This document shows positions 28,287 to 53,039 of a DNA stretch of 64,000 bases, in pieces. This DNA comes from an uncultured Planctomycetia bacterium. Its GTDB lineage: Bacteria > Omnitrophota > Gorgyraeia > 2-02-FULL-51-18. The notes below the pieces were generated by a model. The model was not told the origin of the DNA. It worked only from the letters and a program-made list of their open reading frames with translations, and made no database searches. The number at the start of each line of letters is the position of its first letter. Position 1 is the first letter of the stretch. The DNA lies in assembly GCA_964642015.1 (NCBI GenBank), contig CAZXLF010000001.1:254375-318374 (forward strand), in the 5' to 3' direction. The position numbers and the translations under genes were made by a program.

Positions 28287-29696
28287 ATGCTTAAAGAACA
28301 CAACGCAGTATTTAGACGTATCATGATCATGGCTGACCTCTGCGTGATCGCGGTCTCGTTCGTGTTGGCTTATCCGCTGGCTTGCAAACTGAACCCGAGC
28401 ATGAACCCGTTCAAGATTCACATCGCGTTCTTACCGGTGATCCTGATGCTTTGGGGGTTCCTGCTTTATTTTTCCCGGATGTACCAGTCTTTTCGCGTGA
28501 AACCTCTTTTTGAGATGTTCTATATTGTGTTCAAGACCGCTTTGGCCGGTTTCATCATCTTTGGAAGCATCACTTACATTCTGAAGATCACCTATGTTTC
28601 CCGCGCATTCATCGTTTTTGCTTTCTTGATCTCGTCGGTACTTTTGTGCGCTGAAAAGGCGTTCGTGGTGATGTTTTTCCGCTTCACTCGCAGGAAAGGT
28701 TTTAATTTCAGGAGCGTGCTGATCATCGGCACCAATAAACGCGCCCAGCGTTTCGAGGAACTTCTGTACAACCATAGGGAATGGGGATTCCATGTGCTCG
28801 GCTTTATTGATGAAGATCCCAAAAAGAAAGGCGAGGCGTTCGGCAAATCCAAAGTTCTTGGTTCATTCGACGATCTGCCTGATGTGATCCATAGCAACGT
28901 CGTTGATGAGGTCGTGTTCATCGTGCCGAGGTCGTGGCTCACGAAGATCGAGGAGATCGTTCATTTCTGCGAGACCGAAGGTTTAAAGATCCATCTGGCT
29001 GTCGACCATTTTGAGCTGCAATTCGCCAAAGCAAAACAAACGGATTTCCACGGATTTCCGCTGATCACTTTTGAAAGCGCGCCGGACAAGATCTGGCATC
29101 TTTTATTCAAACGGCTTTTTGACCTTGTCCTATCGGGTGTGGCGCTTGTCGTGCTGTCGCCGTTCTTGCTCATCATCGCGATATGCATCAAAGCAACGTC
29201 CAAAGGACCGATATTTTTCAAGCAAACCCGCTGCGGTTTGAATAGCAGGCGCTTCACGCTGCTCAAGTTCAGAACGATGGTCGTGGATGCGGAGAAAAAA
29301 TTGGCGGAACTTGAGAAGCATAATCAAATGAAAGGACCGGCTTTCAAGATGGATAATGACCCGCGTGTCACGCCGATCGGCCGGTTCTTAAGAAAGCTTA
29401 GTTTGGATGAATTGCCCCAGCTCTGGAATGTTCTCGCCGGCGATATGAGCCTCGTGGGCCCGAGACCTCCGATCCCCAAAGAGGTCGAGCGGTATGATAA
29501 TTGGCATCGCCGCCGCTTAAGCATGCGCCCCGGCCTTACGTGTTTGTGGCAGGTGAACGGCCGCAATAAGATCACGGATTTTGACGATTGGATGAAGCTT
29601 GACCTCGAATATATTGACAACTGGTCCTTGTGGCTTGATCTTAAGATCGTGTTCAAAACAGTCCCTGTGGTCCTGATTGGTCACGGCGCCAAATAA
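28287..29696 (+). CDS. polyprenyl-phosphate hexose-1-phosphate transferase (WbaP/ExoY-type bacterial sugar transferase), the initiating enzyme
   Basis: N-terminal TM helices, then 'KRLFDLVLSGVALVVLSPFLL...KGPIFFKQTRCGLNSRRFTLLKFRTM...DELPQLWNVLAGDMSLVGPRP', the canonical sugar-transferase domain. Confidence 0.85.
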   Translation: MLKEHNAVFRRIMIMADLCVIAVSFVLAYPLACKLNPSMNPFKIHIAFLPVILMLWGFLLYFSRMYQSFRVKPLFEMFYIVFKTALAGFIIFGSITYILKITYVSRAFIVFAFLISSVLLCAEKAFVVMFFRFTRRKGFNFRSVLIIGTNKRAQRFEELLYNHREWGFHVLGFIDEDPKKKGEAFGKSKVLGSFDDLPDVIHSNVVDEVVFIVPRSWLTKIEEIVHFCETEGLKIHLAVDHFELQFAKAKQTDFHGFPLITFESAPDKIWHLLFKRLFDLVLSGVALVVLSPFLLIIAICIKATSKGPIFFKQTRCGLNSRRFTLLKFRTMVVDAEKKLAELEKHNQMKGPAFKMDNDPRVTPIGRFLRKLSLDELPQLWNVLAGDMSLVGPRPPIPKEVERYDNWHRRRLSMRPGLTCLWQVNGRNKITDFDDWMKLDLEYIDNWSLWLDLKIVFKTVPVVLIGHGAK

Positions 29697-38679: not shown

Positions 38680-38925
38680 TACAAAACCCCCTTGCCCAAA
38701 CTCGCAGTAATCACCTTAGATATTTTTGAATCCTTTTTAAATTAAAATTTGATTAATAAATCTTACAAAACGATCATTAAAATTTGATGAAAATAAGATT
38801 AATTTTTCTTAATGGCCTATTTTATACCATATTCCGCTATGAATTAGCGAATGTTTTCTCTTATAATATTTAAGATCCAAATGAGAGAAAAAAATATTTT
38901 TTTGGAAGATCCGAGTCAAAACTGA

Positions 38926-38992
38926 AAAATCAAAAGTCAAAACCGCAACTTAAAACGCAAAATGTTTTTGTTTGTTTTGACTTTTGATCTTT
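38926..38992. repeat. inverted repeat in the divergent intergenic region
   Basis: 'atcaaaagtcaaaac' (38929-38943) is the reverse complement of 'gttttgacttttgat' (38974-38988), a 15-bp stem with a ~30-nt spacer. The repeated 'gtcaaaac' motif also occurs at 38915. Confidence 0.4.
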
Positions 38993-39135
38993 AACTTTTG
39001 AGTTTTTAGTCACCGTATTATAGTTGTATATACAAAAGTATTATGCTACAATGACCCCTTTCGATTTAATCCCAAACCGGGTTTTCGTAGGGCTATCTGA
39101 TCAGAGAAGTGTTAAAAAACAAAAAGGACCATGAG

Positions 39136-39351
39136 ATGGAAGATAAATTGAAAAAGGAGGCGTTCTTGACAGTCGACCTTAAAGAAGTAGACAGCATCGC
39201 TCAGGACATCGTCTCAAGAAAAAAGGATGCTGTCTTGAACATCCGCATGAATAGCAGGGATCTGCGCAGTATCAAGCAAAAGGCGAGGAAGATGGGCGTT
39301 AAGTATCAGACGTTCATCTCTGAGCTTCTGCATCGCATCGCGCATAGCTGA
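39136..39351 (+). CDS. BrnA/CopG-like ribbon-helix-helix small protein (orphan antitoxin-like)
   Basis: C-terminus 'NIRMNSRDLRSIKQKARKMGVKYQTFISELLHRIA' resembles the BrnA antitoxin family. No BrnT/DUF497-like partner ORF is visible nearby. Start ambiguous among 39109, 39136 and TTG 39162. Confidence 0.45.
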   Translation: MEDKLKKEAFLTVDLKEVDSIAQDIVSRKKDAVLNIRMNSRDLRSIKQKARKMGVKYQTFISELLHRIAHS

Positions 39352-39356
39352 TCTTT

Positions 39357-39884
39357 ATGGAAAAGATCAAGCGCTCATTCCACTGCTTCCTATATTACGG
39401 TTTTGCTAGGCATTTACCTATCTCGTATTTGCCGGGTGGCAAGATTGCTAAAGCGATCCGCGCTTTTATCTGTAGGCGTCTTTTCAAAAAATGCGGTAAG
39501 GACGTGAATGTCGAAGCTAAGGCCTTTTTTAACACCGGTCGCGAGATAGAGCTTGGAGATCATTCGGACATAGGGGTCAATGCCAAGGTATTTGGTCCGG
39601 TCGTGATCGGGAAGGATGTGATGATGGGGCCTGATGTGGTGTTCGTTGGCGGAGCACACGAATTTGGCCGTATTGACATTCCGATGAGGAAACAAGGATT
39701 TAAAACACCTATGCCAACGATTGTATCGGATGATGTTTGGATTGGAACGAGGGCGTTGATTTTGGCAGGGGTCAAGATCGGCCGCGGGGCGATCATCGGG
39801 GCCGGCGCAGTTGTTACCAAAGATATTCCCGATTGGGCGGTTGTTGTGGGAAATCCAGCTCAAGTCATTCGGTTAAGAAAATGA
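39357..39884 (+). CDS. hexapeptide-repeat (LbH) sugar O-acetyltransferase
   Basis: 'VWIGTRALILAGVKIGRGAIIGAGAVVTKDIPDWAVVVGNPAQVIR'. Confidence 0.8.
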   Translation: MEKIKRSFHCFLYYGFARHLPISYLPGGKIAKAIRAFICRRLFKKCGKDVNVEAKAFFNTGREIELGDHSDIGVNAKVFGPVVIGKDVMMGPDVVFVGGAHEFGRIDIPMRKQGFKTPMPTIVSDDVWIGTRALILAGVKIGRGAIIGAGAVVTKDIPDWAVVVGNPAQVIRLRK

Positions 39885-40405
39885 ACCCTAATTTTCAATC
39901 AACCACTTTATGGTTCACCGGTAGACCGTGTTCGGGAAAAAGCACGATAGCAGCTCACCTTGTCAAAGAAATGGAAAAGAGGCAAATTCGTATTGCAAGA
40001 CTTGACGGTGATGATGTACGCGGTCGATTAAATTCGGATTTGGGTTTTACTGACAAAGATCGGCGTGAAAATTTACGCAGAATAGCGCACGTGGCACAGC
40101 TATTTAATGAGAACAATAATTTTGTGATCGCTACGTTTGTATCGCCCACCAATGATATGAGAGCGTTGGTTCGGAGAATCATAAAGAATTTCAAATTATG
40201 TTACATCCGCTGTGCTCCCGAAGTATGCGAAAGCCGGGACGTAAAAGGCATGTATAAAAAAGCCAGAGCGGGTCAGATCAAAGATTTTACCGGTATTTCG
40301 GCACCTTTCGAAGAACCGATCGGGCCTGAGATTATTGTAGACACTGATCACGCTGGTATAGATCAGTGTGTGAATCATATATTGAAAGAGATGGGGATCG
40401 GATAG
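39881..40405 (+). CDS. cysC: adenylyl-sulfate (APS) kinase
   Basis: 'LWFTGRPCSGKSTIA' P-loop in the exact APS-kinase context, and 'ARLDGDDVR' matching the LDGDN(V/I)R APS-binding motif. 174 aa. ATG at 39881 overlaps the upstream stop. Confidence 0.85.
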   Translation: MNPNFQSTTLWFTGRPCSGKSTIAAHLVKEMEKRQIRIARLDGDDVRGRLNSDLGFTDKDRRENLRRIAHVAQLFNENNNFVIATFVSPTNDMRALVRRIIKNFKLCYIRCAPEVCESRDVKGMYKKARAGQIKDFTGISAPFEEPIGPEIIVDTDHAGIDQCVNHILKEMGIG

Positions 40406-41178
40406 TGTCATTGACTGATATTGATAAAGCGATTTTACCTGAAATTATCAACATCGCCGAAGATGCGGGCCGATCGATCTTAAGGATCTATTCGCTTAGC
40501 GATTTTGGTATCGTGATGAAAATCAATGATTCTCCTTTAACTTTGGCAGATACAGCGGCGCATGAAGCGATCGTGAGATCCTTGAACCGGTTGACGCCGG
40601 ATTGGCCGGTGTTGTCGGAAGAATCGAAATCCGTTCCTTATAATATAAGGAAGGAGTGGAAAACTTTTTGGATGGTCGATCCTTTGGACGGAACGAAGGA
40701 ATTCATTAAAAGGAACGGAGAGTTTACCGTAAACATTGCATTGATCAAAGGCAATGTTCCCGTGATGGGGGTCGTGCATGCGCCGGTGAAGCAGCTGACT
40801 TATTTTGCAGAAGATCGCCAAGGCGCTTTTAAAAGTATCGCCGGCGCTAAAGCGGAACGGATACAAACGGATAAAAAGCCTAAAGGGGTTTTGAAAGTCG
40901 TCATTAGTCGTGATCATATCGGCGGCGAAATGGAAGCATTTCTAAAAACTCTCGAACATTATGAAGCGGTGCACGTGGGAAGTTCGTTGAAATTTTGTTT
41001 GGTGGCCGAAGGTCAGGCGCATCTTTATCCTCGTTTTTGGCCCTGCATGGAGTGGGACACCGCAGCGGCGGAGTGTGTGGTGCGCGAAGCTGGAGGTAGC
41101 GTGAAAGATCTTTCGGGAAATAACTTGAAATACAATAAACCTGATCTTCTAAACCCATATTTTATCGTCAAAGCATAA
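40366..41178 (+). CDS. cysQ: 3'(2'),5'-bisphosphate nucleotidase (inositol monophosphatase superfamily)
   Basis: 'WMVDPLDGTKEFI' metal-binding motif (DPxDGT) and 'GSSLKFCLVAEGQA'. Genomic pairing with APS kinase supports a CysQ role. GTG start at 40366 or 40405. Confidence 0.75.
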   Translation: MCESYIERDGDRIVSLTDIDKAILPEIINIAEDAGRSILRIYSLSDFGIVMKINDSPLTLADTAAHEAIVRSLNRLTPDWPVLSEESKSVPYNIRKEWKTFWMVDPLDGTKEFIKRNGEFTVNIALIKGNVPVMGVVHAPVKQLTYFAEDRQGAFKSIAGAKAERIQTDKKPKGVLKVVISRDHIGGEMEAFLKTLEHYEAVHVGSSLKFCLVAEGQAHLYPRFWPCMEWDTAAAECVVREAGGSVKDLSGNNLKYNKPDLLNPYFIVKA

Positions 41179-41193
41179 AAGAAAGGGAGCAAC

Positions 41194-41865
41194 ATGGAAG
41201 AAATTATGGAGCTGGATCTGAACAAGCCGGGAAGTATAGGGGAAAAGTCTTTCAATATTTTATGGGAAAAAATAAAAAGTTTAGCGGCAAAAAATATATT
41301 GGAATTCGGAAGCGGTGTAAGCTCGATCAGAATGGCTAGAGCTTTCCCGGAGACGAACATCGTCTCGATCGACCATGACCTTAAGTATTATAGGAAGACG
41401 CATACCTTGAAACGGAAATATTGTCCCGGTTCCAATTTGAACATCCTGTTTTCACCGCTTCGATATCAATGGTCGAGCGGAAGTCTGTTCTTGAGTTATG
41501 CCAAAAATAAATTTAGCGGGATCTTTGATTGTGTGATCATCGATGGCCCTCAAAGCTGGCTAACCCTTAGGGGCAGGGAAGTTTGTTTGTATAAGGTCTA
41601 CGAAAATTTAAGGATTGGTGCAGTGGTGGTACTGGACGATTATTCAAGAGAGGAAGAAAAGACCGTTCTCAAAAACTGGCTTTTGACCTATCCCGGCAGT
41701 TTTAGAGTGGACGTTGTCGAGGAAGGTCATCATCTGGTTTTTTTGACAAAGGTAAAGCAGGTAAAGCCGCGTTATTTTTGCTGGTCGAAGTTTATCGACA
41801 ACCTGCAGACAAATATACATTTGTTTTTAAGATCATTTAAAAGAAGGTTTATTCCAGCGCATTAA
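41194..41865 (+). CDS. putative class I SAM-dependent (O-)methyltransferase
   Basis: 'NILEFGSGVSSIRMA' glycine-rich motif I followed by 'VVLDDY' acidic motif. The assignment is weak. Confidence 0.4.
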   Translation: MEEIMELDLNKPGSIGEKSFNILWEKIKSLAAKNILEFGSGVSSIRMARAFPETNIVSIDHDLKYYRKTHTLKRKYCPGSNLNILFSPLRYQWSSGSLFLSYAKNKFSGIFDCVIIDGPQSWLTLRGREVCLYKVYENLRIGAVVVLDDYSREEEKTVLKNWLLTYPGSFRVDVVEEGHHLVFLTKVKQVKPRYFCWSKFIDNLQTNIHLFLRSFKRRFIPAH

Positions 41866-41871
41866 CAAACT

Positions 41872-44205
41872 ATGGATCTAAAACAAAAAACGATAAAAGG
41901 CTTGAGCTGGTCATTTGCCTCTCAAGCAGCCAGACAGGTCAGCCAATTTGCGGTGACCGTCATCCTGGCGCGCTTATTGATGCCCGACGATTTTGGACTG
42001 GTGGGAATGGCGACCGTTTTCACCGGATTCATTTCAGCGGTCAATGAGATCGGTGTAAGCGGAGCTCTAATCCAAAGGCAGCAAGTGGACGAAAGCCATT
42101 ATAGTTCGGTTTTTTGGCTGAACATTTTTCTGGGAACGGCATTTACAGCCTTATTCATTGCCGTGTCTCCGGCGATCGCGGCATTTTACAACAAACCCGA
42201 ACTCATCTCTATTTTAAGGATCAGCGCTTTTAATTTTATTTTGGCAGCATTTTCCATCGTGCAAAGAGCTATTTTCCAAAAACATATGGAATTTAAAAAG
42301 CTTGCCGTGATCGAAACTTTGGCGATCGTTATAGGGGGTGTCGTCGGAATCGTCATGGCTTACCGCGGATTTGGTGCATGGAGTTTGGTCTACCAAATGA
42401 TCGCATTCACGCTGGCCAATACGGTTTTGTTGTGGCTGTTTTCCCACTGGAGACCACGGTTTATTTTTTCCATCTCTTCGATCAAAGATATATTCGGTTT
42501 CAGCGCGCATGTGACGGGATTTACTGTCATGAATTACTTCGCCAGGAACGTGGATTATCTTTTGATTGGTAAATTTTTGGGCGCAGAATCGCTAGGTTAT
42601 TACACCTTGGCCTATAAACTAATGCTCTATCCTTTGCAGAACGTTACTTGGACCATACAAAAAGTAATGTTTCCGGCGTTTTCAGTTATCCAAAATGACA
42701 TCGCGAAGGTCAAGAACGCCTATTTAAAGATGATAAAAAGCATATCGATCACAGTGTTTCCGATGATGTTCGGTCTTTTTGCGCTGGCGCCTGAATTGAT
42801 CGACGCCGTTTACGGAGCCAAATGGCTGCCTTCGGTGATCGTTATCAGGATTTTTTGTTTTTGCGGAATGATCCAGTGCCTTTCGAGTACGGCGGGCACT
42901 ATTTATCAATCTCAAGGCCGTTCGGATATCCAATTTAAGATAGGTTTTCTCGGATCTTTGGGGGCTGTTTTATCTATTATTTTAGGACTTCGCTGGGGCA
43001 TTGAAGGAGTAGCGGCCTGTTATACTGCCTATTCCATTCTGTGGGGATTTTATTCACTGTACATCGTAGAAAGATTGATCAGTTTAAAGAAAAAAGATTT
43101 TTATTTATTATTCGCCAAGATATTCCTGATCTCATCGGGCATGTTCCTTTTTACGTTGTATCTCAAGAGTATTTTAAGAATTCATGGCTGGCCGGAATTA
43201 ATGATTGTCATGACAGCGGCAGCCACTGTTTATGTTTTTTTGTTGCTTGTTTTTAAACAAATCGGTTATCAAAATATGGATCATGTTTTGAATGGTAAGA
43301 AACAAAATACCAAAGTTGCGCCCAATTTCTTTTGTGTAGGCACAAAGAAAGGTGGCACGACGACTTTGCAGGATATTTTAGTACAGCACCCAGATATTTA
43401 TTTGCCCAAGGTAAAAGAGACAAAATTTTTTGCAATCGAAGAAAAATACTCCAAAGGAATTGAGTATTACAAAAAAGAGTATTTCTCAAGATGTAATGGT
43501 CAAAAAGCGGTAGGAGAAATTGATCCCGCTTATATGTTCGTCCCTTATGCCCCTTCAAGGATCCACAAAGCTTTAGGAGATGAGATAAAGATTATTTTCC
43601 TTCTGCGAAATCCGGTTGACCGAGCTTATTCTCATTATCTGATGAATTACCGTTGGGGTATCGAGAGTAGATTATTCGAAGAAGCGATAGAAGCTCCCGA
43701 GATCGTGCCAAGCGAAGGATTGTCGTTGGACGATTTTTCAAACAAATATAATTTCTGTTATAGGGAAACTGGTTATTATGCAAAACAGATATCCGCCTAT
43801 TTAAAGTTCCTCAAAAGATCCAATATGATCTTTTTTGTTTTTGAAGAGGATATTAAATCAAATATCCGATCGACTATTGAGTCTATAGAGAAGTTTCTTG
43901 GGATCAGGCACGTTGAATTGAACTTTAATAAAATAAGCAACCCTGCAAGTATGCCTAGATTTAGGATCATCAGGGATTTTACGAGAAAAACAAATATCGT
44001 AAGAAAAATAGGCAAACACTTTTTCCCATCTCAATCCTTACGATATAGGATCCTTATGAGAATAGATGAAATGAATCAAGTTGAAATCAAGCCAAAACCT
44101 TTGGATAGTTCATTCAAAAAATATCTACTAGACAAATATTACAAAGAAGAGGTCAAGGCATTGGAAGTCATTTTGAACAGAAATTTAAGCGTTTGGATGG
44201 AATAA
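41872..44205 (+). CDS. fusion protein: Wzx/MOP-type polysaccharide flippase (aa ~1-460) and PAPS-dependent sulfotransferase domain (aa ~470-777)
   Basis: N-terminus has ~12 hydrophobic helices with a Wzx-like start 'LSWSFASQAARQVSQFAVTVILARLL'. The C-terminal domain has the sulfotransferase 5'-PSB loop 'FCVGTKKGGTTTL' and 3'-PB motif 'LLRNPVDRAYSHY'. Confidence 0.75.
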   Translation: MDLKQKTIKGLSWSFASQAARQVSQFAVTVILARLLMPDDFGLVGMATVFTGFISAVNEIGVSGALIQRQQVDESHYSSVFWLNIFLGTAFTALFIAVSPAIAAFYNKPELISILRISAFNFILAAFSIVQRAIFQKHMEFKKLAVIETLAIVIGGVVGIVMAYRGFGAWSLVYQMIAFTLANTVLLWLFSHWRPRFIFSISSIKDIFGFSAHVTGFTVMNYFARNVDYLLIGKFLGAESLGYYTLAYKLMLYPLQNVTWTIQKVMFPAFSVIQNDIAKVKNAYLKMIKSISITVFPMMFGLFALAPELIDAVYGAKWLPSVIVIRIFCFCGMIQCLSSTAGTIYQSQGRSDIQFKIGFLGSLGAVLSIILGLRWGIEGVAACYTAYSILWGFYSLYIVERLISLKKKDFYLLFAKIFLISSGMFLFTLYLKSILRIHGWPELMIVMTAAATVYVFLLLVFKQIGYQNMDHVLNGKKQNTKVAPNFFCVGTKKGGTTTLQDILVQHPDIYLPKVKETKFFAIEEKYSKGIEYYKKEYFSRCNGQKAVGEIDPAYMFVPYAPSRIHKALGDEIKIIFLLRNPVDRAYSHYLMNYRWGIESRLFEEAIEAPEIVPSEGLSLDDFSNKYNFCYRETGYYAKQISAYLKFLKRSNMIFFVFEEDIKSNIRSTIESIEKFLGIRHVELNFNKISNPASMPRFRIIRDFTRKTNIVRKIGKHFFPSQSLRYRILMRIDEMNQVEIKPKPLDSSFKKYLLDKYYKEEVKALEVILNRNLSVWME

Positions 44206-44225
44206 GAACCCAAGAAATTTAGAAC

Positions 44226-45377
44226 ATGAATATGAATGTGCTGATGCTCACGAGATATTTTCCGCCGGAGTTTGGTGGAGCTGCTATCCAGGCGACGTAT
44301 CTGGCAGACGAATTGAGAAAACAAGGGGCGAATATCGAATTCTATGTGGACAACGGTAGCCGTAAGACAGCTGTTGACTTGTATAATGGCACCAAAGTCT
44401 ATAGGGACAGGACCTATGCGGATAAAGGTTTTTTGCGCAATTGGATTTACTATTTCAAACTGTTTTTATTTATAGCCCGTAATCCAAAATACAAAATATT
44501 GCATTTTCATTCAATGAACGGTATTGAGTCTATCTGGTTCCCATTTTTCAGGCTCATGAAAAGAAAGATTATATTCAAGTTAACGCTTGTAGGCATTGAT
44601 GATCCTCAGAGTTTCAGAAAAAGAAAGATGGGATTTTTTATTTGTTGGGCGCTTGGTTTTGTCGATAAATTCGTGGCTATATCCAAAGCACTTTTTGAAA
44701 AATCTACGTCGGCTGGGATCAAAAAGGACAAAATAGTTTATATTCCAAATGGGGTCAACGTTGAAAAATTCAACCGGATCGAAACCTTAAAAAAGAATGT
44801 GCTGAAGGCGAAACTTGGATTAAGCAGTTTTTCAAAGATCTTTTTTTCTGTCGGAAAAATTGAACTGCGCAAGGGTTATGATTTTTTGTTAAATGCCTGG
44901 ATCAAAATTTGCGACACTTTTCCGGCATCGGTGCTTATCATAGGAGGCCCCGGCAATGTGCCGGAAAATGAGTATTATCTGAAACTTCAAAACATGATAA
45001 AGGAAAATGGATTAAAAAATATCATCTTCCTTGGTCAGATTGATAACGTGGATGAGTATATGAAGATATCGGACGCGTTCTTGTTTTGCTCGCTTCGAGA
45101 AGGTTTTGGGAATGTTCTGATCGAAGCTATGTCCACCGGTGTTCCGGTCGTATCGCGCTATCTTCACGGGATAACCGACGATATTATAATTGATCCTGAA
45201 ATCGGCCGGGTTGTTAAAGAAGATTCATTTGAAAAATACGCTGATGAAGTCATTTCATTTATTCAAAATATCAACCAAGAGAAATCACTAAAGGCGTCAG
45301 AAAAAATAAGATCGAAGTTTGATATTAAAATCATTAGCAGACAATATACAGAGCTTTACCAGGCGCTGAGCATATGA
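44226..45377 (+). CDS. glycosyltransferase family 4
   Basis: 'VLMLTRYFPPEFGGAAIQATYLADEL' and 'EGFGNVLIEAMSTGVPVVS'. Confidence 0.8.
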   Translation: MNMNVLMLTRYFPPEFGGAAIQATYLADELRKQGANIEFYVDNGSRKTAVDLYNGTKVYRDRTYADKGFLRNWIYYFKLFLFIARNPKYKILHFHSMNGIESIWFPFFRLMKRKIIFKLTLVGIDDPQSFRKRKMGFFICWALGFVDKFVAISKALFEKSTSAGIKKDKIVYIPNGVNVEKFNRIETLKKNVLKAKLGLSSFSKIFFSVGKIELRKGYDFLLNAWIKICDTFPASVLIIGGPGNVPENEYYLKLQNMIKENGLKNIIFLGQIDNVDEYMKISDAFLFCSLREGFGNVLIEAMSTGVPVVSRYLHGITDDIIIDPEIGRVVKEDSFEKYADEVISFIQNINQEKSLKASEKIRSKFDIKIISRQYTELYQALSI

Positions 45378-46513
45378 GTCAACATAAAATACTTCATGTC
45401 ATTAAGACATTAAATCTTGGTGGAGCAGAGACAAATCTCTTAAATCTTCTTAGGGAAAGCAAAGACTCAGAAGATTATTATTTGGCTTATTCTTATGGCG
45501 GAAAATTTGAAGAAGAATTTCGGAATCTTGGGATAAGTTTTTATAAATATGCCGGCTGCGAACATAAGGTTAAAAGTTTCGCATCTTTGGCCATTATTCT
45601 TAAATTGGCGCTATTTATCAGACGAAATAAGATTCAGATCGTGCATACTCATAATTACAACAGCCATGTTTGGGGAGCGTTGGCCGGGAAGCTTGCCGGA
45701 GCAAAGGTCGTCGAGCATGTCCACGATTTTCGTTATGAAAAAGCCGATTATCTAAAGGAAAGGGGATTGAATCCGAAACAGTTCAAGACGGCTGTTTTTT
45801 TCAGCAGATTTTCGGACCGCATCCTTGTGCTGACCAAGAATAATCAAAGATACTTGATCGAGAACGGAGTCCCCGCTGAAAAGATCGTTCTTATACCGAA
45901 CGGTGTCCCGCTTGGCTTTGATTTGAACGGCGGCCGTCCAGGTCTTTTGGACTCTTTATCGATCCCAAGCGGCAAAAAGATCTTATTATCAGCGGCAAGG
46001 ATATCCGTTGAAAAAAATATAGGATTTCTTTTGGATATTGCCTCACAGTTGAAGCGCGAAGATATTCTTTTTTTGATCGCGGGAGATGGGTCTCTTAAAA
46101 AAGAGCTGGAAGAGCGCACTATAAAAGAGGGCCTTGAAGAAAAGGTAAAATTCATCGGTTTTTATCCTGATGTCAAAAGATTGCTCGGAGTTTCAACTTT
46201 ATTTCTTCAGCCCACTTTACTTGAACTTCATTCGATCACGATGCTTGAGGCGATGAGCATGGGCGTGCCGGCGCTTGTCTCCAAAGGTGTCGGTTGTAAT
46301 GATGATTTTATCGAAAACGGTAAGAACGGGTTTCTGCTTGATCCTTGCGATGCCAAAGCATGGGCGAAAATAGTAGGGACTCTGCTGGATGACGAGAAGC
46401 TCTCCGCTAAAGTGGCCGGTGAAGGGCAGAGACTGATTGAGAACCAATACGATATTGAAAAGACAGTCAAAGCGATTGAGGGGATTTATAGGGAACTTGT
46501 GAGGGAAGAATAG
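45374..46513 (+). CDS. glycosyltransferase family 4 (paralog of 17173-18321)
   Basis: 'ILHVIKTLNLGGAETNLLNLL' and 'LELHSITMLEAMSMGVPALVSKGVGCNDD' are collinear with the 17173 gene. Confidence 0.8.
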   Translation: MSQHKILHVIKTLNLGGAETNLLNLLRESKDSEDYYLAYSYGGKFEEEFRNLGISFYKYAGCEHKVKSFASLAIILKLALFIRRNKIQIVHTHNYNSHVWGALAGKLAGAKVVEHVHDFRYEKADYLKERGLNPKQFKTAVFFSRFSDRILVLTKNNQRYLIENGVPAEKIVLIPNGVPLGFDLNGGRPGLLDSLSIPSGKKILLSAARISVEKNIGFLLDIASQLKREDILFLIAGDGSLKKELEERTIKEGLEEKVKFIGFYPDVKRLLGVSTLFLQPTLLELHSITMLEAMSMGVPALVSKGVGCNDDFIENGKNGFLLDPCDAKAWAKIVGTLLDDEKLSAKVAGEGQRLIENQYDIEKTVKAIEGIYRELVREE

Positions 46514-47850
46514 TGATAAAAAGTATTTTTGATTATAGGATCTATCTGACCATTGGGGTAGGGTGTCTCCTCTCGTTCGTTCTGGTCAGCGGACTGCCGT
46601 GGTATTACGCCGTAGGATTTATGTTTGTGTGGGTGATTACTCTGATCGCCATCAATAATCCGCTCCATTTTTTATTCGCACTTTTTTTGATAAGACCAGC
46701 TCTTGATTCCGTGCTTTCGGGAATGCGTTTCGGCGATACCGGTGGTTTCGGTTTTGGGGGAGCCGTGTCATTATTTTTGATCGTATTGACAGGTTTTTAT
46801 ATGCTGACCTCTCCGAATAGTCTTAGAGGGTTCAGTCAACCGATCGTGAAAATGTATCTTGTTTTTATCGCAATCAGTGCGTGTTCCTATTTTTTTCCTC
46901 AGGATAAAGTGACTATATCAAAAACCCTTATCAATTATGTGGCAATCTTATCTATTACATTGCTCACTTTCCTTTTATCCAAAACGGAAAAAGAAACACG
47001 CGTGATCATCCGTTCTATCGTGTTGTCCCCGATGCTATGTCTCAGCTTAGGCATTTTTACGAATAAGCGCAGTGTAGACGGAAGATTTGCCGCGACGTTC
47101 GCGCATCCTAATATTCTGGCTTTTTATCTTCTGATCATCATCGGCTGTCTTTTGCTGAATATAGAGAGTTATAAACGAGAAAAGAAATTTTCGACTATAA
47201 AGAAATTTTATTTCCTGATATTGGTCACCGCACTGGCGTTCACTCAAACTAGAAGCGGATGGGGTGCTTTCGTGGTCATGCTGGGAATCTACTCACTTTT
47301 TTTCAACAGAAAGTTCATTTTACCGGGCATTATCATGTTGTTAGTTCTTTTATGCGTACCATTCGTGAAAGAGCATATTGCGAATATTTTTCATTCCCAT
47401 GGAAAATTAATACAGGTCAACGAACAGAGTTCGTTGGGATGGCGTTTTGAGAAATGGAGTTATTTATGGACGCCCATTACCAAAAAACCCTTGACCGGAT
47501 ATGGGATAGGCGCAGCAACCGAATATGGCAAAGATAAGCTGGGCGCGCATAATGATTATCTTCGTTTTCTGATAGAGTCAGGGATATTCGGCCTTATTTC
47601 TTATTTTCTGCCGTTCTGGTACATGCTCTACCGGGCTATTAAAGATAGGAAGGGATTAAATGAACAAAGTATCACTTACCGGCTTGCGCAATTTTTCATC
47701 ATTTTTATTCCCGCGTTTCTTGTCATGAGCATCACTGAGAATCTTGGAAATTATGTCATTATTCAATGGTATATTTGGGCGCTTTTCGGGATCTATTTTG
47801 GCTTGATATCCGCACGCTCTGAACACATTTCCAACCATGCAAAACGCTGA
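46513..47850 (+). CDS. Wzy-like O-antigen polymerase/ligase family membrane protein, copy 2
   Basis: 'HPNILAFYLLIIIGCLL' and 'LAFTQTRSGWGAFVVML' match blocks of 18314-19723. Confidence 0.65.
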   Translation: MIKSIFDYRIYLTIGVGCLLSFVLVSGLPWYYAVGFMFVWVITLIAINNPLHFLFALFLIRPALDSVLSGMRFGDTGGFGFGGAVSLFLIVLTGFYMLTSPNSLRGFSQPIVKMYLVFIAISACSYFFPQDKVTISKTLINYVAILSITLLTFLLSKTEKETRVIIRSIVLSPMLCLSLGIFTNKRSVDGRFAATFAHPNILAFYLLIIIGCLLLNIESYKREKKFSTIKKFYFLILVTALAFTQTRSGWGAFVVMLGIYSLFFNRKFILPGIIMLLVLLCVPFVKEHIANIFHSHGKLIQVNEQSSLGWRFEKWSYLWTPITKKPLTGYGIGAATEYGKDKLGAHNDYLRFLIESGIFGLISYFLPFWYMLYRAIKDRKGLNEQSITYRLAQFFIIFIPAFLVMSITENLGNYVIIQWYIWALFGIYFGLISARSEHISNHAKR

Positions 47851-49030
47851 ATTAGAACTTAAAAACGAGAACATCATTTGCTTTGCCGGTGAAGATTGGT
47901 GGTATCACAATCCGCATTCCAATTTTCACATCATGAAATCCTTCGCCAAAGAGAACCGTGTACTTTTTGTGAATTCGATCGGTGTAAGTGCGCCCAACAT
48001 GAATGATAAGTATGTCTGGAAAAGGATAGGGAATAAGATCAAGAGTCTTGCACGTTATTTAAAAAAAGTCGAAAAAAATATCTATGTGCTTTCGCCGATA
48101 GCCTTGCCTCTTATTAAAGGTCATGAAAAAATAGTCCAGCGGTTCAATAAATTTTTGATTTTGCTTCAAATGAAAGTTATTTTAAAAATAATTCGATTTG
48201 AAAAACCTATTCTTTGGGTATGTGCTCCTTCATTTGCTGATGTTGCCCTGGCTTTAAAAAAACGGGCGAAGTGCTTGATCTATTATTGTGTCGATAACAT
48301 TACTTTTTATAGCGGAGAAATGAATCCATACATTTTGGATCTCGAGATCAAATTGCATTCTAATGCGGATGCCGCTTTGTTTGTCAACCATCGGCTTGTG
48401 GAAGAAAGAAAGAAATTTAACCCTAAAACTTACCATATAGGACATGGAGTGGATTATGACCATTATGCGGTATGCCAAAATGGCCATCTGTCTATACCTT
48501 CTGATATGGAGGAGATAAAGGCTCCGATCGTGGGATATATAGGTGTTATTCGCGGAGTGAACCTTGAGCTGGTAAAGTTTTTGGCGGACAAAAATCAAGA
48601 CGTCTCATTTGTATTCATTGGCGACATTCAACAGGACATTTCAAGTCTTAAAGATATCGGGAATGTCCATTTTTTAGGCCGAAGAGAATACAGGTTATTA
48701 CCGCAATATATGCAAAAAATGTCTTGTTTCGGGATTTTTTATCAGATCAATGATGTATTTAACAATTACAGAAATCCGAAGAAGCTTCTGGAATATTTTG
48801 CATCCGGAAAGCCTATTGTATCAGTTCCGATATTGGAGCTAGAGTATTTTAAAGAACTTGTTTACATCGCTGAGAATTATGAGGCGTTCGACCATTTTAT
48901 AAAAAAAGCATTGTACAACGATAGCCCGGAATTAAGGAAAATGCGCATTCAATTTGCCAAAGAGCATACCTGGGATGTTATTTCGAGCGAGTCCTCACAA
49001 TATATTTTTCAAGCGATAAAGGGGACATGA
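47837..49030 (+). CDS. putative GT-B fold glycosyltransferase (divergent)
   Basis: No strong signature. C-terminal 'YRNPKKLLEYFASGKPIVS' resembles the GT1/GT4 nucleotide-sugar binding helix. Context only. Confidence 0.4.
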   Translation: MQNAELELKNENIICFAGEDWWYHNPHSNFHIMKSFAKENRVLFVNSIGVSAPNMNDKYVWKRIGNKIKSLARYLKKVEKNIYVLSPIALPLIKGHEKIVQRFNKFLILLQMKVILKIIRFEKPILWVCAPSFADVALALKKRAKCLIYYCVDNITFYSGEMNPYILDLEIKLHSNADAALFVNHRLVEERKKFNPKTYHIGHGVDYDHYAVCQNGHLSIPSDMEEIKAPIVGYIGVIRGVNLELVKFLADKNQDVSFVFIGDIQQDISSLKDIGNVHFLGRREYRLLPQYMQKMSCFGIFYQINDVFNNYRNPKKLLEYFASGKPIVSVPILELEYFKELVYIAENYEAFDHFIKKALYNDSPELRKMRIQFAKEHTWDVISSESSQYIFQAIKGT

Positions 49031-49908
49031 TGGAACGGCTGGAGAGCGTCAAGAGTTTTTGGAATTCAAATCCATGTGGGAGTCGGTCATCGGATGACCA
49101 GAACAGATCAAATTATTTCAAGGAGGTCGCTTCTAAGAGATATGACGCAGAATTTCATATTCCTGAAATAGCTAAATTTGAGAATTTTAAGGATCGCGAT
49201 GTTTTAGAAATAGGTTGCGGATTAGGGACTGACGGCCTTCAATTTGCGAAAGCGGGAGCCCGCTATGTAGGCGTGGATCTGACCCCGGCAGCTGTCAGCT
49301 TATCCAAAGAGCATTTCAGTCTTTTTAATATTAACGGAATATTTTTTGAGGTTAATGCTGAAAAGCTGCCTTTTCCAGATAATAATTTTGATCATGTTTA
49401 CAGTTTTGGCGTTATACATCATTCCCCCGATATTGAAGCGATCGTCAGAGAGATATACCGTGTTCTCAAGCCAAACGGGACGTTTTGCATTATGATTTAT
49501 AACAAATCATCTATTAATTATTACCTGGAAATAATGTTCTTTAGAAAGATCTTTAAGCGCCTGCTTTATCCCGCATTTATGCCTTCATTCTTGTCAAAAT
49601 GTTTCGGCTTTAGCAAGGATAAATTGGAAGAACATAGGAAAATTCTGTGGAATGCTAAGAAAATCTCAAAGGAAAAATGGATCAGCATCAATACCGATGG
49701 GCCTAATTGTCCGTTGGCAAGAGTGTACAACAAGGAGGAAGCGTTTGAGCTTTTTAGAAAATTTGAAGACATAAGAAGCGAAGTCCGTTTCTTTGACAAA
49801 TCTCACTGGCCTCTCTTGAGGAACTTGTTGCCAAAATCCGCGGTATCATGGCTCGGAAATCGCTGGGGATGGCACAGAATGGTGTATGGAAAAAAACCTT
49901 CTTATTGA
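49027..49908 (+). CDS. class I SAM-dependent methyltransferase (Methyltransf_11-like)
   Basis: 'DVLEIGCGLGTDGLQFAKAGARYVGVDL' motif I, 'FDHVYSFGVIHH' motif II/III region. Confidence 0.75.
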   Translation: MMERLESVKSFWNSNPCGSRSSDDQNRSNYFKEVASKRYDAEFHIPEIAKFENFKDRDVLEIGCGLGTDGLQFAKAGARYVGVDLTPAAVSLSKEHFSLFNINGIFFEVNAEKLPFPDNNFDHVYSFGVIHHSPDIEAIVREIYRVLKPNGTFCIMIYNKSSINYYLEIMFFRKIFKRLLYPAFMPSFLSKCFGFSKDKLEEHRKILWNAKKISKEKWISINTDGPNCPLARVYNKEEAFELFRKFEDIRSEVRFFDKSHWPLLRNLLPKSAVSWLGNRWGWHRMVYGKKPSY

Positions 49909-51130
49909 TAAAGACTTTAAGGTCGATATAACCGATCAAAGTTATTTACGGCCTATGATCGATTCTTTCTTGGGATGGCTTGATAAAAACGGCTATGCCG
50001 GCTATGACGCGTATGATCTGTGGGCTACGCGATACGGAATTTTTTCAAGGAAGATCTATTACAAGAACAAATTTTTATCCGCGCCTTTTGTTGCGCCGGT
50101 CGTATTGGCGGAGATGCTTTGCCCTGGCTTGAGCCGTTTGTTTTTACGGAGGCACCGCTTTGCGATCGCTGACGCGCATTTTATCTTGGGTTATCTAAAT
50201 CTTTTTTCGGCGACGAAAGAAGAGCGATATCTTAAAGAAGCGACCAAGCTTTCGGATGAATTATTGGGCCAAAGCGTCAGCGGGTATTCCGGCATATGCT
50301 GGGGCTATCCATTTGACTGGCAAAATAACCGCGGGCTCTGGAAAAAGGGAACGCCTTTTGTCACCGTAACGCCTTATGGCATGGAAGCGATGCTTGCGCT
50401 ATATGATGCGACAAAGGATAAAAAATATCTGGATCAAGCGCTTTCAAGCGCACAGTTCATTTTGAAAGATATCCGTGATACCAAAACCTCGGATGACGCG
50501 TCGGCATGCTCTTATTCGCCGCTGGATGAAAGCAAAGTCGTGAACGCGAGCGCTTACCGCGCTTTTGCGCTTACGGAAGCGTTCCATAGATCCCAGCAAA
50601 AAGAATTTCAGGAAAAAGCGCTGAGGAATCTCAATTTTGTGCTTCAAAGTCAAAAACCCGACGGTTCATGGCTTTATGCCGAAGGCAATTCGCAGGATGC
50701 TTTCATAGATAATTTTCATACTTGTTTTGTGCTGAAAAATCTCTGCAAGCTGAACCGGCATCTAAAAAGCGCGGATGTAGAAGGTGCGATCATTAAGGGT
50801 TATGGATATTATAGGAAGCAGCTGTTCGATAAGAGCGGGGAGCCCAAACCTTTTGCTGGAACAAAGAGCGGCCAATTCGTGAGGTATGAGTTGTACGATT
50901 TTGCCGAAGCGATCACATTGGGGACTCTATTAAAAGAAAAAGTATTAGGAGCTTTTGAATTGTCAAAAACGTTAGCAGAAAAGGTGATGAAAAATTACCA
51001 GCTTCGTGACGGACATTTTGTCACGCGTGTTTATAAGTCGGGCACCAAAAACTCCGTACCTTATATCCGCTGGCCTCAAGCGCAGATGTTTTATGCACTG
51101 ACCAGCCTTTTAAAGGAAGTGAGCGGCTGA
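49886..51130 (+). CDS. hypothetical protein, possible alpha/alpha-toroid fold
   Basis: 'QKPDGSWLYAEGNSQDAFIDNFHTCFVL' repeat reminiscent of the 4515 and 24400 proteins, and 'ICWGYPFDWQN'. No confident family assignment. Confidence 0.35.
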   Translation: MEKNLLIDKDFKVDITDQSYLRPMIDSFLGWLDKNGYAGYDAYDLWATRYGIFSRKIYYKNKFLSAPFVAPVVLAEMLCPGLSRLFLRRHRFAIADAHFILGYLNLFSATKEERYLKEATKLSDELLGQSVSGYSGICWGYPFDWQNNRGLWKKGTPFVTVTPYGMEAMLALYDATKDKKYLDQALSSAQFILKDIRDTKTSDDASACSYSPLDESKVVNASAYRAFALTEAFHRSQQKEFQEKALRNLNFVLQSQKPDGSWLYAEGNSQDAFIDNFHTCFVLKNLCKLNRHLKSADVEGAIIKGYGYYRKQLFDKSGEPKPFAGTKSGQFVRYELYDFAEAITLGTLLKEKVLGAFELSKTLAEKVMKNYQLRDGHFVTRVYKSGTKNSVPYIRWPQAQMFYALTSLLKEVSG

Positions 51131-51131
51131 T

Positions 51132-53039
51132 ATGTGCGGCATAGCGGGTGTATTTAATTTCCAAAGTCAAGACACGGTCTCAGAGGAGCTTCTTAAACGG
51201 ATGTGCGACGCGATCAAGCACCGCGGGCCGGATGACGAAGGATTCTTTATCGACCCGGTTTCGCGCGTCGGGTTTGGTCATCGACGGCTCAGCATTATCG
51301 ACCTGTCCGGCGGAAAACAGCCGATGCCGAACGATGCGGAAGATGTCTGGATCGTATTCAACGGTGAGATCTATAATTTTCCGGAACTAAAAAAAGAACT
51401 ATTGGACAAAGGATATGTTTTCAGAAATAGATCCGATACCGAAGTGATCGTGAATCTTTATAAAGAATACGGCGTCGAAGCTTTTGACCGGTTGAATGGC
51501 ATTTTTGCTTTCGCGATCTATGATAAAAAAGATCGCTCAGTGATCCTGGCAAGAGATCGTTTTGGTGTAAAACCGCTTTATTATTGGCTCAATAAAGGGA
51601 AGGTCGTCTTCGCCTCGGAAATGAAGGCAATATTTCAAGATGAGTCTGTCCCGAAAGAGTTGGATACGGAATCGCTGGATAGCTTCCTAACTTTTCGTTA
51701 TAACCCTTCCCCGCAAACGATGTTCAAGGGTGTTAAAAAATTGTACCCGGGACATTATCTGAAGATCGAACTGGACAAAGGATGGGAACTTAAAAGTTTT
51801 ACTCAAGACAGCCCGAGGATCGACGTGCGTATCAGCGAGCAAGATGCTGTCGCGGAATATAGAAGACTTCTCGAAGCGGCGGTCAAGCGTCAAATGATCA
51901 GCGATGTGCCGGTAGGCCTTTTCTTAAGCGGGGGCGTGGACTCGGCGGTGCTTGGAGTGCTGATGCAGAAGCACTATAAGGAAAAAATAAACACGTTCAC
52001 GATCGGCTTTGAAGGGCAGGGTGATTACAACGAGCTGGAAGACGCGAGAGTGTCCGCAAAGCTGATCGGCTCCGATCATCATGAGATGACGCTGTCGCAG
52101 GCGGATTATATGAAATTTTTTTATGAATCATTCACCGTCACGGAGGAACCGATCGCTGAGACGACGATCCCGGCGCTTTACTATGTATCCAAGCTTGCGG
52201 CCAAGCACCTTAAGGTGGTGCTGGCAGGCCAAGGGGCAGATGAGCCGATGGCGGGTTATCACCGGTATCTGGGAGCGCATTTTATAGGGAAGTACGGAAA
52301 TATTTTGAAAGCATTGCCGCTTGGACTTGCGTCAAAATTCATCCCCCGGAATGAGCGCTTCAAAAGAGCTGTCTATGTGAGTCGTTTTTCCGGGGAGCTC
52401 GAAAAGATCCTTGCGATCTATACGATCTTTGATCCCGAACAGAAAAAACTCCTTTATAACGGCCGGGCGCACACGAATGGAAATAATGTTAATGAAACCA
52501 TAACGAACCGGCTGTATGCCGAAGCCAAAGATCTGCCGGATATGCTTTCAAAAATTCTATACATAGATACGCGAATGAGCTTACCGGACGATCTTTTGCT
52601 TTTCAACGACAAGATCACAATGGCCAATTCTCTGGAAATGCGCGTACCTTTTCTGGATATAGAACTTGTAAAATTTCTGGAATCTCTGCCTTCGTCGATG
52701 AAATTGAAGGGCACGCAGCGCAAGTATATCCATAAAAAAGCTGTCGAGGCGTGGCTGCCGAATGAGATCATTTATAGGAAGAAAAGGGGATTTATGACAC
52801 CGATGGATGAATGGCTGCAGAATGATATGGCATTGACGGTAAAAAAGATCGTTAATGATAAAGCATCGGCTTCCAGGAAGTTTTTTGATGTGGGATATAT
52901 CGACAGAATGATCGATCTTCACAGAGCTAGGAAGGAAAATTATCAGCGCCACATTTTCGCGCTTTTGTCATTCGAGCTTTGGTATAAAACTTTTTTTGAA
53001 AATAAAACTTTTGTAGTGCCCCAGCTTATAGGTCAATAA
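51132..53039 (+). CDS. asnB: asparagine synthetase-type glutamine amidotransferase (exosortase/EPS-locus-associated AsnB homolog)
   Basis: N-terminal nucleophile 'MCGIAGVFNF', class-II GATase domain and a PP-loop synthetase domain 'FLSGGVDSAV'. 635 aa. Confidence 0.85.
   Translation: MCGIAGVFNFQSQDTVSEELLKRMCDAIKHRGPDDEGFFIDPVSRVGFGHRRLSIIDLSGGKQPMPNDAEDVWIVFNGEIYNFPELKKELLDKGYVFRNRSDTEVIVNLYKEYGVEAFDRLNGIFAFAIYDKKDRSVILARDRFGVKPLYYWLNKGKVVFASEMKAIFQDESVPKELDTESLDSFLTFRYNPSPQTMFKGVKKLYPGHYLKIELDKGWELKSFTQDSPRIDVRISEQDAVAEYRRLLEAAVKRQMISDVPVGLFLSGGVDSAVLGVLMQKHYKEKINTFTIGFEGQGDYNELEDARVSAKLIGSDHHEMTLSQADYMKFFYESFTVTEEPIAETTIPALYYVSKLAAKHLKVVLAGQGADEPMAGYHRYLGAHFIGKYGNILKALPLGLASKFIPRNERFKRAVYVSRFSGELEKILAIYTIFDPEQKKLLYNGRAHTNGNNVNETITNRLYAEAKDLPDMLSKILYIDTRMSLPDDLLLFNDKITMANSLEMRVPFLDIELVKFLESLPSSMKLKGTQRKYIHKKAVEAWLPNEIIYRKKRGFMTPMDEWLQNDMALTVKKIVNDKASASRKFFDVGYIDRMIDLHRARKENYQRHIFALLSFELWYKTFFENKTFVVPQLIGQ

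Follow-up and report, generated by a model that had tools for sequence, protein, structure and literature searches.

A flippase–sulfotransferase fusion in an exopolysaccharide locus of an uncultured Omnitrophota bacterium

We analysed a stretch of 64,000 nucleotides (hereafter the window) from an uncultured bacterium assigned to the Omnitrophota (GenBank assembly GCA_964642015.1, contig CAZXLF010000001.1, positions 254,375 to 318,374). One of its open reading frames (ORFs), 777 aa long, encodes a Wzx-type flippase of the multidrug/oligosaccharidyl-lipid/polysaccharide (MOP) class followed, in the same polypeptide, by a sulfotransferase of the type that uses 3′-phosphoadenosine 5′-phosphosulfate (PAPS). 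We consider it fairly probable that this is a bifunctional protein of a Wzx/Wzy-dependent, exosortase-associated exopolysaccharide (EPS) locus, whose sulfotransferase half would sulfate the lipid-linked unit in the cytoplasm before its own flippase half exports it. A first-pass annotation of this DNA, made by a model, had already proposed that the repeat unit is sulfated by the protein that flips it, and it appears reasonable to infer so.

Flippase and sulfotransferase domains in one reading frame

Features are listed in Table 1. As the first-pass annotation had claimed, profile searches place both domains in one polypeptide (PF13440 and PF01943, then PF00685 and PF13469, each above its cut-off). 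The N-terminal part matched PF13440 with 336.9 bits (cut-off 23, aa 31-322), PF01943 with 140.4 bits (cut-off 28.2) and the NCBIfam model NF007773, ‘MOP flippase’, with 323.6 bits (cut-off 273), the latter over aa 1-462 and profile positions 1-466 of 492. Many stand-alone flippases (470-482 aa) share 50-60% identity with it along the entire length, and its nearest named relatives come from metagenome-assembled genomes of Omnitrophota and Brocadiaceae. The AlphaFold2 model of the fusion (mean predicted local distance difference test score, pLDDT, 78.3) has 14 transmembrane (TM) helices in aa 3-460, mostly at pLDDT 80-92. A sequence search of the PDB with the flippase domain gave no match, and structures were matched via fold search only: Foldseek returned MurJ (6nc6) with a target-normalised TM-score (TMt) of 0.79, WzxE (9g9p) with 0.75, and MATE transporters with 0.6-0.7. 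The earlier description of a complete Wzx/MOP flippase therefore stands, except for its helix count, which is 14, like MurJ, and not 12.

An even number of helices, together with 22 Lys and Arg residues on the side of the N- and C-termini versus 10 on the opposite side (positive-inside rule), places the flippase tail and the sulfotransferase, by prediction, in the cytoplasm. The C-terminus of Wzx has been mapped experimentally to the cytoplasm (PMC2932511), and mycobacterial MurJ has an intracellular domain after TM14 (PMC6180346). The first-pass annotation had raised the question of the membrane face; structure prediction answers it in favour of the cytoplasmic side, where PAPS is. The topology is coherent, since PAPS and the two enzymes of PAPS metabolism encoded nearby, CysC and CysQ, are all cytoplasmic. 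From the gene context (a Wzy and glycosyltransferases of its own, with Wza, Wzz and a priming transferase elsewhere in the window), the flippase domain would move repeat units linked to undecaprenyl diphosphate. The AlphaFold2 run used a combined alignment in which nested window fragments served as bridging rows. The docking of the two domains in that model was rejected as evidence (predicted TM-score, pTM, 0.57; pLDDT below 50 for aa 465-497).

The window contains no sulfotransferase match other than that of the fusion. Searched by sequence against the PDB, this domain matched best the bacterial sulfotransferase 3rnl (about 6e-31), then the heparan-sulfate 3-O-sulfotransferases (3-OST) 3-OST-5, 3-OST-1 and 3-OST-3 (~1e-14; 4.7e-15 for 3-OST-5) and the N-deacetylase/N-sulfotransferase NDST1 (~1e-8); with Foldseek, TMt was 0.76 for 3rnl and 0.72 for 3-OST-1. 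It is related to 3-OST and to the N-sulfotransferase domain of NDST, and aligns with them through the 5′-phosphosulfate-binding (PSB) loop, KE..FF and R..P..R..S. The two PAPS motifs pointed out in the first-pass annotation are present, with the Lys, Arg and Ser near-invariant in 257 stand-alone relatives. The PSB motif, KKGGTTT (aa 492-498), aligns to the KGGT loop of 3-OST-5, and has G490, K493, G495, T496 and T497 in place, K493 being kept in 247/257 relatives and T496 in 254/257. The 3′-phosphate motif, RNPVDRAYS (aa 579-587), includes R579, P581, R584 and S587; R579, R584 and S587 are invariant in all 257. Between the two, K515-E516-T-K-F-F aligns with QEIHFF of 3-OST-5. After E516, which is found in 254/257 relatives, Lys takes the place of His, as in 78 of the 257. 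The Glu of this (K/Q)E-x-H-F-F motif, with which E516 lines up, is the catalytic base in 3-OSTs and NDST1. In sum, the fusion has kept K493, K515, E516, R579, R584 and S587, each 96-100% conserved in the relatives, as well as F519 and F520, and its sulfotransferase is apparently active.

The junction was analysed by aligning 20 stand-alone flippases (470-482 aa) and 20 stand-alone sulfotransferases (about 293-314 aa) with the fusion. The flippases end at fusion aa 467-482. The sulfotransferases begin with M-x-L-P-N-F, i.e. around aa 481-482, 2-3 residues before PNFF (aa 484-487). Flippase homology runs in frame through the cytoplasmic tail motif FKQI..Q, and sulfotransferase homology resumes at PNFF without a change of frame. 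Between the end of TM14 (around aa 461) and the first sulfotransferase strand (aa 487), the tether consists essentially of the cytoplasmic tail of the flippase itself. The alignment suggests that a complete wzx gene and a complete sulfotransferase gene were joined end to start, via loss of a stop codon and of the intergenic gap. At the ancestral start position of the sulfotransferase, the codon is AAA (K481), two changes away from ATG. This argues that translation of the sulfotransferase now depends on upstream translation rather than on a start codon of its own, and that the join is not of very recent date. An internal in-frame ATG (Met470, 43279-43281) lies 14 codons before PNFF; when the DNA before it was read directly, nothing resembling a Shine-Dalgarno sequence was seen.

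An NCBI gene call on a 510-kb contig gives exactly this 777-aa protein, and the gene is 100% identical over its 2334 nt in two independent Logan assemblies of different runs (SRR12313480 and SRR12313479). With the frame identical base for base in these assemblies and the same protein called at NCBI, a fusion created by a frameshift, named in the first-pass annotation as a possible refutation, is very unlikely.

Table 1. Features of the sulfation module and its gene row (window positions)
Feature	Positions	Strand	Basis
80-aa ribbon-helix-helix / CopG-like ORF	39109..39351	+	PF12441 CopG_antitoxin 24.8 bits, below cut-off 28
Hexapeptide-repeat (WcaF/maltose-type) O-acetyltransferase, first enzyme gene of module	39357..39884	+	PF00132 44.6 bits (cut-off 27); PF14602 35.6 bits (cut-off 27)
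APS kinase CysC (APS + ATP -> PAPS)	39881..40405	+	PF01583 181.8 bits; TIGR00455 192.5 bits (cut-off 138.7)
3′(2′),5′-bisphosphate nucleotidase CysQ (PAP -> AMP + Pi)	40366..41178	+	TIGR01331 288.2 bits (cut-off 228.8); PF00459 167.7 bits
223-aa class I SAM-dependent methyltransferase-like protein, predicted cation-dependent O-methyltransferase (COMT/CCoAOMT) fold	41194..41865	+	Family profile, AlphaFold2, Foldseek
Flippase::sulfotransferase fusion, 777 aa	41872..44205	+	Pfam and NCBIfam, both domains above curated cut-offs in one ORF
Flippase domain, aa 1-461, complete 14-TM MOP/PST (Wzx-type)	41872..43254	+	Pfam, NCBIfam, AlphaFold2
Tether, aa 462-483, FKQIGYQNMDHVLNGKKQNTKVA	43255..43320	+	Junction alignment, AlphaFold2 pLDDT
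PAPS-dependent sulfotransferase domain, aa 484-777 and stop	43321..44205	+	PF00685 72.7 bits (cut-off 22, aa 485-690); PF13469 35.8 bits (cut-off 27)
Rest of gene row: two GT4 glycosyltransferases, Wzy-like polymerase, GT1-like protein, Methyltransf_11 methyltransferase, 414-aa alpha/alpha-toroid-like protein, AsnB-like amidotransferase	44226..53039	+	Pfam
APS, adenosine 5′-phosphosulfate; PAP, 3′-phosphoadenosine 5′-phosphate; SAM, S-adenosylmethionine.

The sulfation module and the surrounding glycan locus

The fusion closes a module of five same-strand ORFs (39357-44205), separated by gaps of -4 to +15 nt. The ORFs named by the first-pass annotation are all in the translation listing at the positions it gave. 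It left out the first enzyme gene, the hexapeptide acetyltransferase, which belongs to the module. Its calls for CysC and CysQ are borne out by the equivalog models TIGR00455 and TIGR01331. CysC, whose start overlaps the acetyltransferase stop by 4 nt, covers 152/152 positions of the PF01583 profile and has the Walker A motif GRPCSGKS in its translation. For CysQ, two starts are possible, GTG 40366 (270 aa) or GTG 40405 (257 aa, the NCBI call, 13 codons shorter); its score with the enterobacterial model NF008182 is 256, below the cut-off of 379, as expected for a distant species.

No match to the ATP-sulfurylase, CysD and CysN families was found with Pfam over the whole window among 53 candidate ORFs (antisense shadow ORFs and ORFs <150 aa omitted), in agreement with the first-pass annotation. 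It had called the module self-contained, which goes too far, since APS must come from elsewhere, as it said itself. Many bacteria assimilate sulfate via APS reductase, and PAPS is then needed for sulfation only. From such general sulfur metabolism, a locus with CysC and CysQ alone is understandable: plausibly, the housekeeping ATP sulfurylase provides APS, and PAPS synthesis and PAP removal travel with the sulfotransferase.

The acetyltransferase scored below the cut-offs of the specific NCBIfam equivalogs (WcaF, LacA, Maa), the WcaF family being the best. It is 45-57% identical to the acetyltransferases found directly upstream of the nearest sulfotransferases (loci L006, L007 and L008) and of a stand-alone Wzx (L019).

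The 223-aa ORF preceding the fusion had been called a methyltransferase, and this is supported at the fold level by AlphaFold2, Foldseek and a family profile. The protein itself scored 20.1 bits with Methyltransf_24, below the Pfam cut-off of 26.3, and 5 of the 9 members of its family match Methyltransf_24 at E <= 0.01 (best 3.3e-7). The family profile matched PDB entries 2gpy (3e-10), YrrM/TrmR (9e-8), 3cvo (3e-7) and COMT. The AlphaFold2 model (pLDDT 87.6, pTM 0.85) had 50 listed Foldseek matches in the PDB, all 50 of them methyltransferases and nearly all cation-dependent O-methyltransferases (best E ~5e-11, TM-score 0.55-0.76). LEFGSG, the glycine-rich SAM motif I, is invariant in the family, and D..IDGP is also found. 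The family is very small: 8 relatives were found, most of them without Pfam annotation and four with a C-terminal extension of ~80 aa. A member stands immediately upstream of a Wzx flippase in two loci, the window and L012 (7001-7648), where the Wzx is stand-alone. On the other side of the module, 5 nt separate the end of the CopG-like ORF from the acetyltransferase. This ORF, whose membership in the module is uncertain, may encode a regulator of the row or be what is left of a toxin-antitoxin system.

The module is part of a longer packed row of 13 genes (39109-53039, ~39.1-53.0 kb), with gaps of -23 to +20 nt from 39351 to 53039 and a gap of 151 nt after it. These limits were set by gene spacing; in a promoter and terminator scan for operon limits, the counts did not exceed the shuffled expectation. 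Judging from their families, the genes at 44226-53039, the last of which is the AsnB-like amidotransferase (51132-53039), would be the machinery that builds and polymerises the unit flipped by the fusion. The fusion is the only flippase within its row, which has its own Wzy and glycosyltransferases. The G+C content is 0.38-0.44 over 38000-50000, i.e. over the sulfation and glycosyltransferase row, versus 0.45-0.49 in the flanks, as might be seen if a serotype-like cassette had been swapped in or gained by lateral transfer.

Directly downstream of the row, at 54125-55695, are an exosortase EpsH (PF09721, 188.9 bits) and a DUF3485/EpsI-like partner. The window as a whole is a very large glycan locus, with three MOP flippases (the other two at 8590-10164 and 26579-28141), two Wzy-like proteins, Wza and Wzz, and a priming phosphoglycosyl transferase at 28287-29696. 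It also encodes many glycosyltransferases, a pyruvyl transferase, and further acetyl- and methyltransferases. Scans for rRNA, tRNA and Rfam families in it were negative. The region looks like a PEP-CTERM/exosortase-associated EPS super-locus.

The window contains a second fusion of two enzymes, at 2196-4505 (769 aa), made of a DegT/DnrJ-type aminotransferase dependent on pyridoxal phosphate (aa 43-346) and a GFO/IDH/MocA oxidoreductase (aa 447-767), which are consecutive steps of amino-sugar synthesis. Between the Wza/Wzz genes and the sulfation row lie two large minus-strand ORFs with signal-peptide-like N-termini, 34190-36031 (613 aa) and 36157-38679 (840 aa). Neither had a Pfam match, and the 613-aa ORF had no sequence match in the PDB; they could be secreted proteins binding or processing glycans. 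The 840-aa ORF is rich in repeats and contains a perfect tandem duplication of 330 bp (37595-38271, 2.1 copies, 100% match). Its counterpart in Logan assembly L001 has 730 aa, one 110-aa unit fewer, reflecting either a repeat collapse in one assembly or a real copy-number variation.

Unfused relatives and searches for other fusions

Parts of the module recur, unfused, in other loci. L005 has a methyltransferase, CysC (67% identical), CysQ (56%) and a stand-alone Wzx (57%); the 209-aa gene after this flippase was tested as a homologue of the 223-aa ORF and of the sulfotransferase, and is neither. In L018, a Wzx (55%) is followed further along by separate genes for CysC (65%), CysQ (58%), a hexapeptide acetyltransferase and a Sulfotransfer_4 protein. 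Inserted between the flippase and these last genes are a Fic protein and a nucleotidyltransferase/HEPN pair (L018, 5142-7692). L008 (Thermosulfurimonas marina) combines Wzx, an acetyltransferase (46%) and a sulfotransferase (52%), L006 and L007 have an acetyltransferase then a sulfotransferase, and L019 an acetyltransferase (57%) then a Wzx (53%). Locus-encoded CysC and CysQ were present in 3 of the 6 examined loci of the fusion's flippase clade. A published cluster for a sulfated capsular polysaccharide, that of Cobetia marina KMM 1449, carries the PAPS-supply genes cysNC, cysD and cysQ and a sulfate permease (PMC11766843). The first-pass annotation was thus right to place CysC and CysQ in a glycan locus, but not to regard the arrangement as unusual: since it recurs in related loci, and PAPS genes have been published for a capsule cluster, there is nothing new in the module as such. 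It is a reshuffling of a shared toolkit, in which the unusual part is the fusion only.

Other fusions were sought in several ways. In a word-index search with the full-length protein, the only fused protein among the best 120 hits was the 777-aa protein itself. A word-index search with the sulfotransferase alone returned 120 stand-alone sulfotransferases and no fusion; the query's own protein was not returned, so this search is blind to at least some fusions. A HMMER search with aa 330-777 against 1.84 billion representatives found no match to the flippase part among the best 150, the query's own protein being no representative there. That library is clustered at 50% identity, and multi-domain proteins can be hidden in it as well as in the word index. 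Peptide-pattern scans of genomes and metagenomes, which are near-exact and reach close relatives only, detected no relative of the join, only distant stand-alone flippases. The first-pass annotation knew of no described flippase–sulfotransferase fusion, and none was found in the literature; the synechan paper (PMC8205485), the Cobetia paper (PMC11766843) and a 2024 review of polysaccharide sulfotransferases make no mention of one. Given the blind spots, rarity is suggested, not proven. The searches suggest a fusion that is rare and undescribed within their reach, and not demonstrably unique.

The only long proteins among the best 150 sulfotransferase representatives were a fusion to a GT2 glycosyltransferase (P0348, 650 aa) and a protein of four sulfotransferases (P0296, 1235 aa). 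Both are of the same sulfotransferase subfamily, which is thus prone to domain fusion with glycan enzymes.

Proposed route, alternatives and significance

The route that we favour would run as follows. The CysC of the locus, an assignment made by family, would phosphorylate APS, presumably supplied from elsewhere in the cell, to PAPS. Glycosyltransferases would build the repeat unit on undecaprenyl diphosphate at the cytoplasmic face, according to the general Wzx/Wzy model (PMC8205485), and the acetyltransferase and the O-methyltransferase-like protein would probably decorate it. The sulfotransferase, held on a tether of ~22 residues at the cytoplasmic end of TM14, would then transfer sulfate from PAPS to a hydroxyl (or an amine) of a sugar, the lipid-linked unit being the likely acceptor. 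In the accepted order, modification precedes flipping (PMC8205485). Next, the flippase domain would carry the sulfated unit across to the periplasmic side, for polymerisation by Wzy and export by Wza and Wzz. PAP inhibits sulfotransferases, and CysQ removes it; the CysQ of the locus, again assigned by family, would hydrolyse PAP in line with this established role. The fusion would keep the last modification made in the cytoplasm right at the exporter's entrance.

Sulfation and flipping may be coupled mechanistically, by channelling or gatekeeping, or the two domains may simply share a location and be made in equal amounts. In the strictest form of coupling, the sulfotransferase would dock at the cytoplasmic mouth of its own flippase and sulfate the unit in the inward-open cavity, so that only sulfated units are exported. 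We hold this obligate sulfate-then-flip scheme to be tentative, and rather doubtful. Several points weigh against the sulfate-and-export interpretation in general. Flipping, the sulfate acceptor and the sulfation of the polymer are predicted from sequence and context, and the supply of APS from elsewhere in the genome is assumed. AlphaFold2 gives no confident packing between the domains, hence no structural support for a direct hand-over. The internal Met470 could permit separate translation of the sulfotransferase. Finally, the fusion is a singleton cluster at 90% identity, present in one lineage only, and its three records probably represent one population. With such sampling, conservation under selection cannot be shown, and a recent neutral loss of a stop codon is possible.

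This last scenario, an accidental read-through in which a mutation of the stop codon or intergenic region in one population joined wzx to the next gene, without benefit and with one half perhaps impaired or on the way to a pseudogene, seems to us unlikely. Simple stop-codon loss would be expected to leave just such an end-to-start join, nearly free of extra linker, and no fused relative turned up in the contig scans, among the best 120 hits to the full-length protein or among the 150 closest sulfotransferase representatives. However, both halves are intact, the flippase being 50-60% identical to its relatives over the full length and the sulfotransferase keeping all its invariant residues; the AAA codon speaks against a very recent join; and a cytoplasmic flippase C-terminus makes the fusion topologically harmless, with the sulfotransferase placed together with its substrates. 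Slightly less likely still, in our estimate, is a sulfotransferase acting on another acceptor (a nucleotide sugar, another lipid or a protein), the flippase half serving mainly as a membrane anchor. The two further MOP flippases of the window would make flipping capacity redundant, and the sulfotransferase relatives in L006 and L007 are outside obvious glycan loci, with an acetyltransferase as sole partner. Against this, among solved structures of known function the nearest homologues are sulfotransferases acting on glycans, unfused sulfotransferases stand within Wzx and glycosyltransferase loci in L008 and L018, and the flippase domain shows no decay and is the only one in a gene row having its own Wzy.

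The two remaining explanations concern the reading frame itself. Met470, with its ATG 14 codons before PNFF, might serve as an internal start yielding free cytoplasmic sulfotransferase besides the fusion, so that tethering would be of little consequence. We find this improbable, as there is no Shine-Dalgarno-like sequence upstream and stand-alone sulfotransferases start 2-3 residues before PNFF, not 14. A false merging of two genes by an indel error is the least credible of all, even if the source appears to be a metagenome-assembled genome and there is a run of 7 T some 40 nt before Met470: the gene is the same in independent assemblies of different runs, NCBI calls the same 777-aa product, and protein homology stays in frame on both sides, past the T run and through FKQI..Q, which makes an assembly artefact very unlikely.

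The proposed sulfate-and-export protein can be compared with known systems. In the xss cluster for synechan of Synechocystis (PMC8205485), the unit is likewise modified on its lipid carrier in the cytoplasm, flipped by Wzx and polymerised by Wzy, with PAPS-type sulfotransferases in the cluster. There, Wzx (XssH) and the sulfotransferases (XssA, XssE) are separate and the text searched names no PAPS genes, whereas here the sulfotransferase is joined to the flippase and CysC and CysQ are in the row. APS kinase and CysQ within a polysaccharide locus, feeding its sulfotransferase and removing PAP, are shared with C. marina KMM 1449 (PMC11766843), L005 and L018. Cobetia has in addition its own ATP sulfurylase (CysD/CysN), a permease and an ABC-transporter route, in contrast to the present locus with CysC and CysQ only, a Wzx/Wzy route and a fused sulfotransferase; L005 and L018 have the same CysC-CysQ pair and a flippase 55-57% identical, unfused. 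The architecture resembles that of mycobacterial MurJ/MviN, a 14-TM MOP flippase with a cytoplasmic domain after TM14 (PMC6180346, citing Gee et al. 2012). There, a long linker bears a regulatory pseudokinase with no catalytic activity, while the domain of the fusion is apparently an active, substrate-modifying enzyme on a short tether. The pneumococcal flippase TacF monitors phosphocholine on teichoic acid precursors (PMC13385700), and both systems would link export to a completed cytoplasmic decoration; in TacF, substrate recognition is inside the transporter, whereas in the fusion the decorating enzyme itself is attached. Finally, in animal NDST (N-deacetylase::N-sulfotransferase, PDB 8ccy) and in the bacterial P0348, the same class of sulfotransferase is fused to the enzyme of an adjacent step, the partner being a soluble or lumenal catalytic domain there and a transporter here.

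In practice, the finding is limited to one uncultured lineage and to sequence data. With CysC and CysQ, it is a possible portable ‘sulfate-and-export’ part for the engineering of sulfated glycans. Being one protein that can be split, or mutated at K493 or E516, it would offer a handle on whether Wzx senses the decoration of its cargo, a question now studied in TacF.

Biosynthesis has been worked out for few bacterial sulfated polysaccharides, and the timing of sulfation relative to flipping and polymerisation is usually assumed. A sulfotransferase joined naturally and covalently to the cytoplasmic end of a flippase is genetic evidence that, in this system, the lipid-linked unit receives its sulfate at the inner face, in the final step ahead of export. 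If the sulfate-then-flip scheme is true, this would be the first MOP flippase with a catalytic substrate-modifying domain within reach of our searches, and a natural Rosetta-stone link placing glycan sulfation on the lipid-linked unit immediately before translocation.

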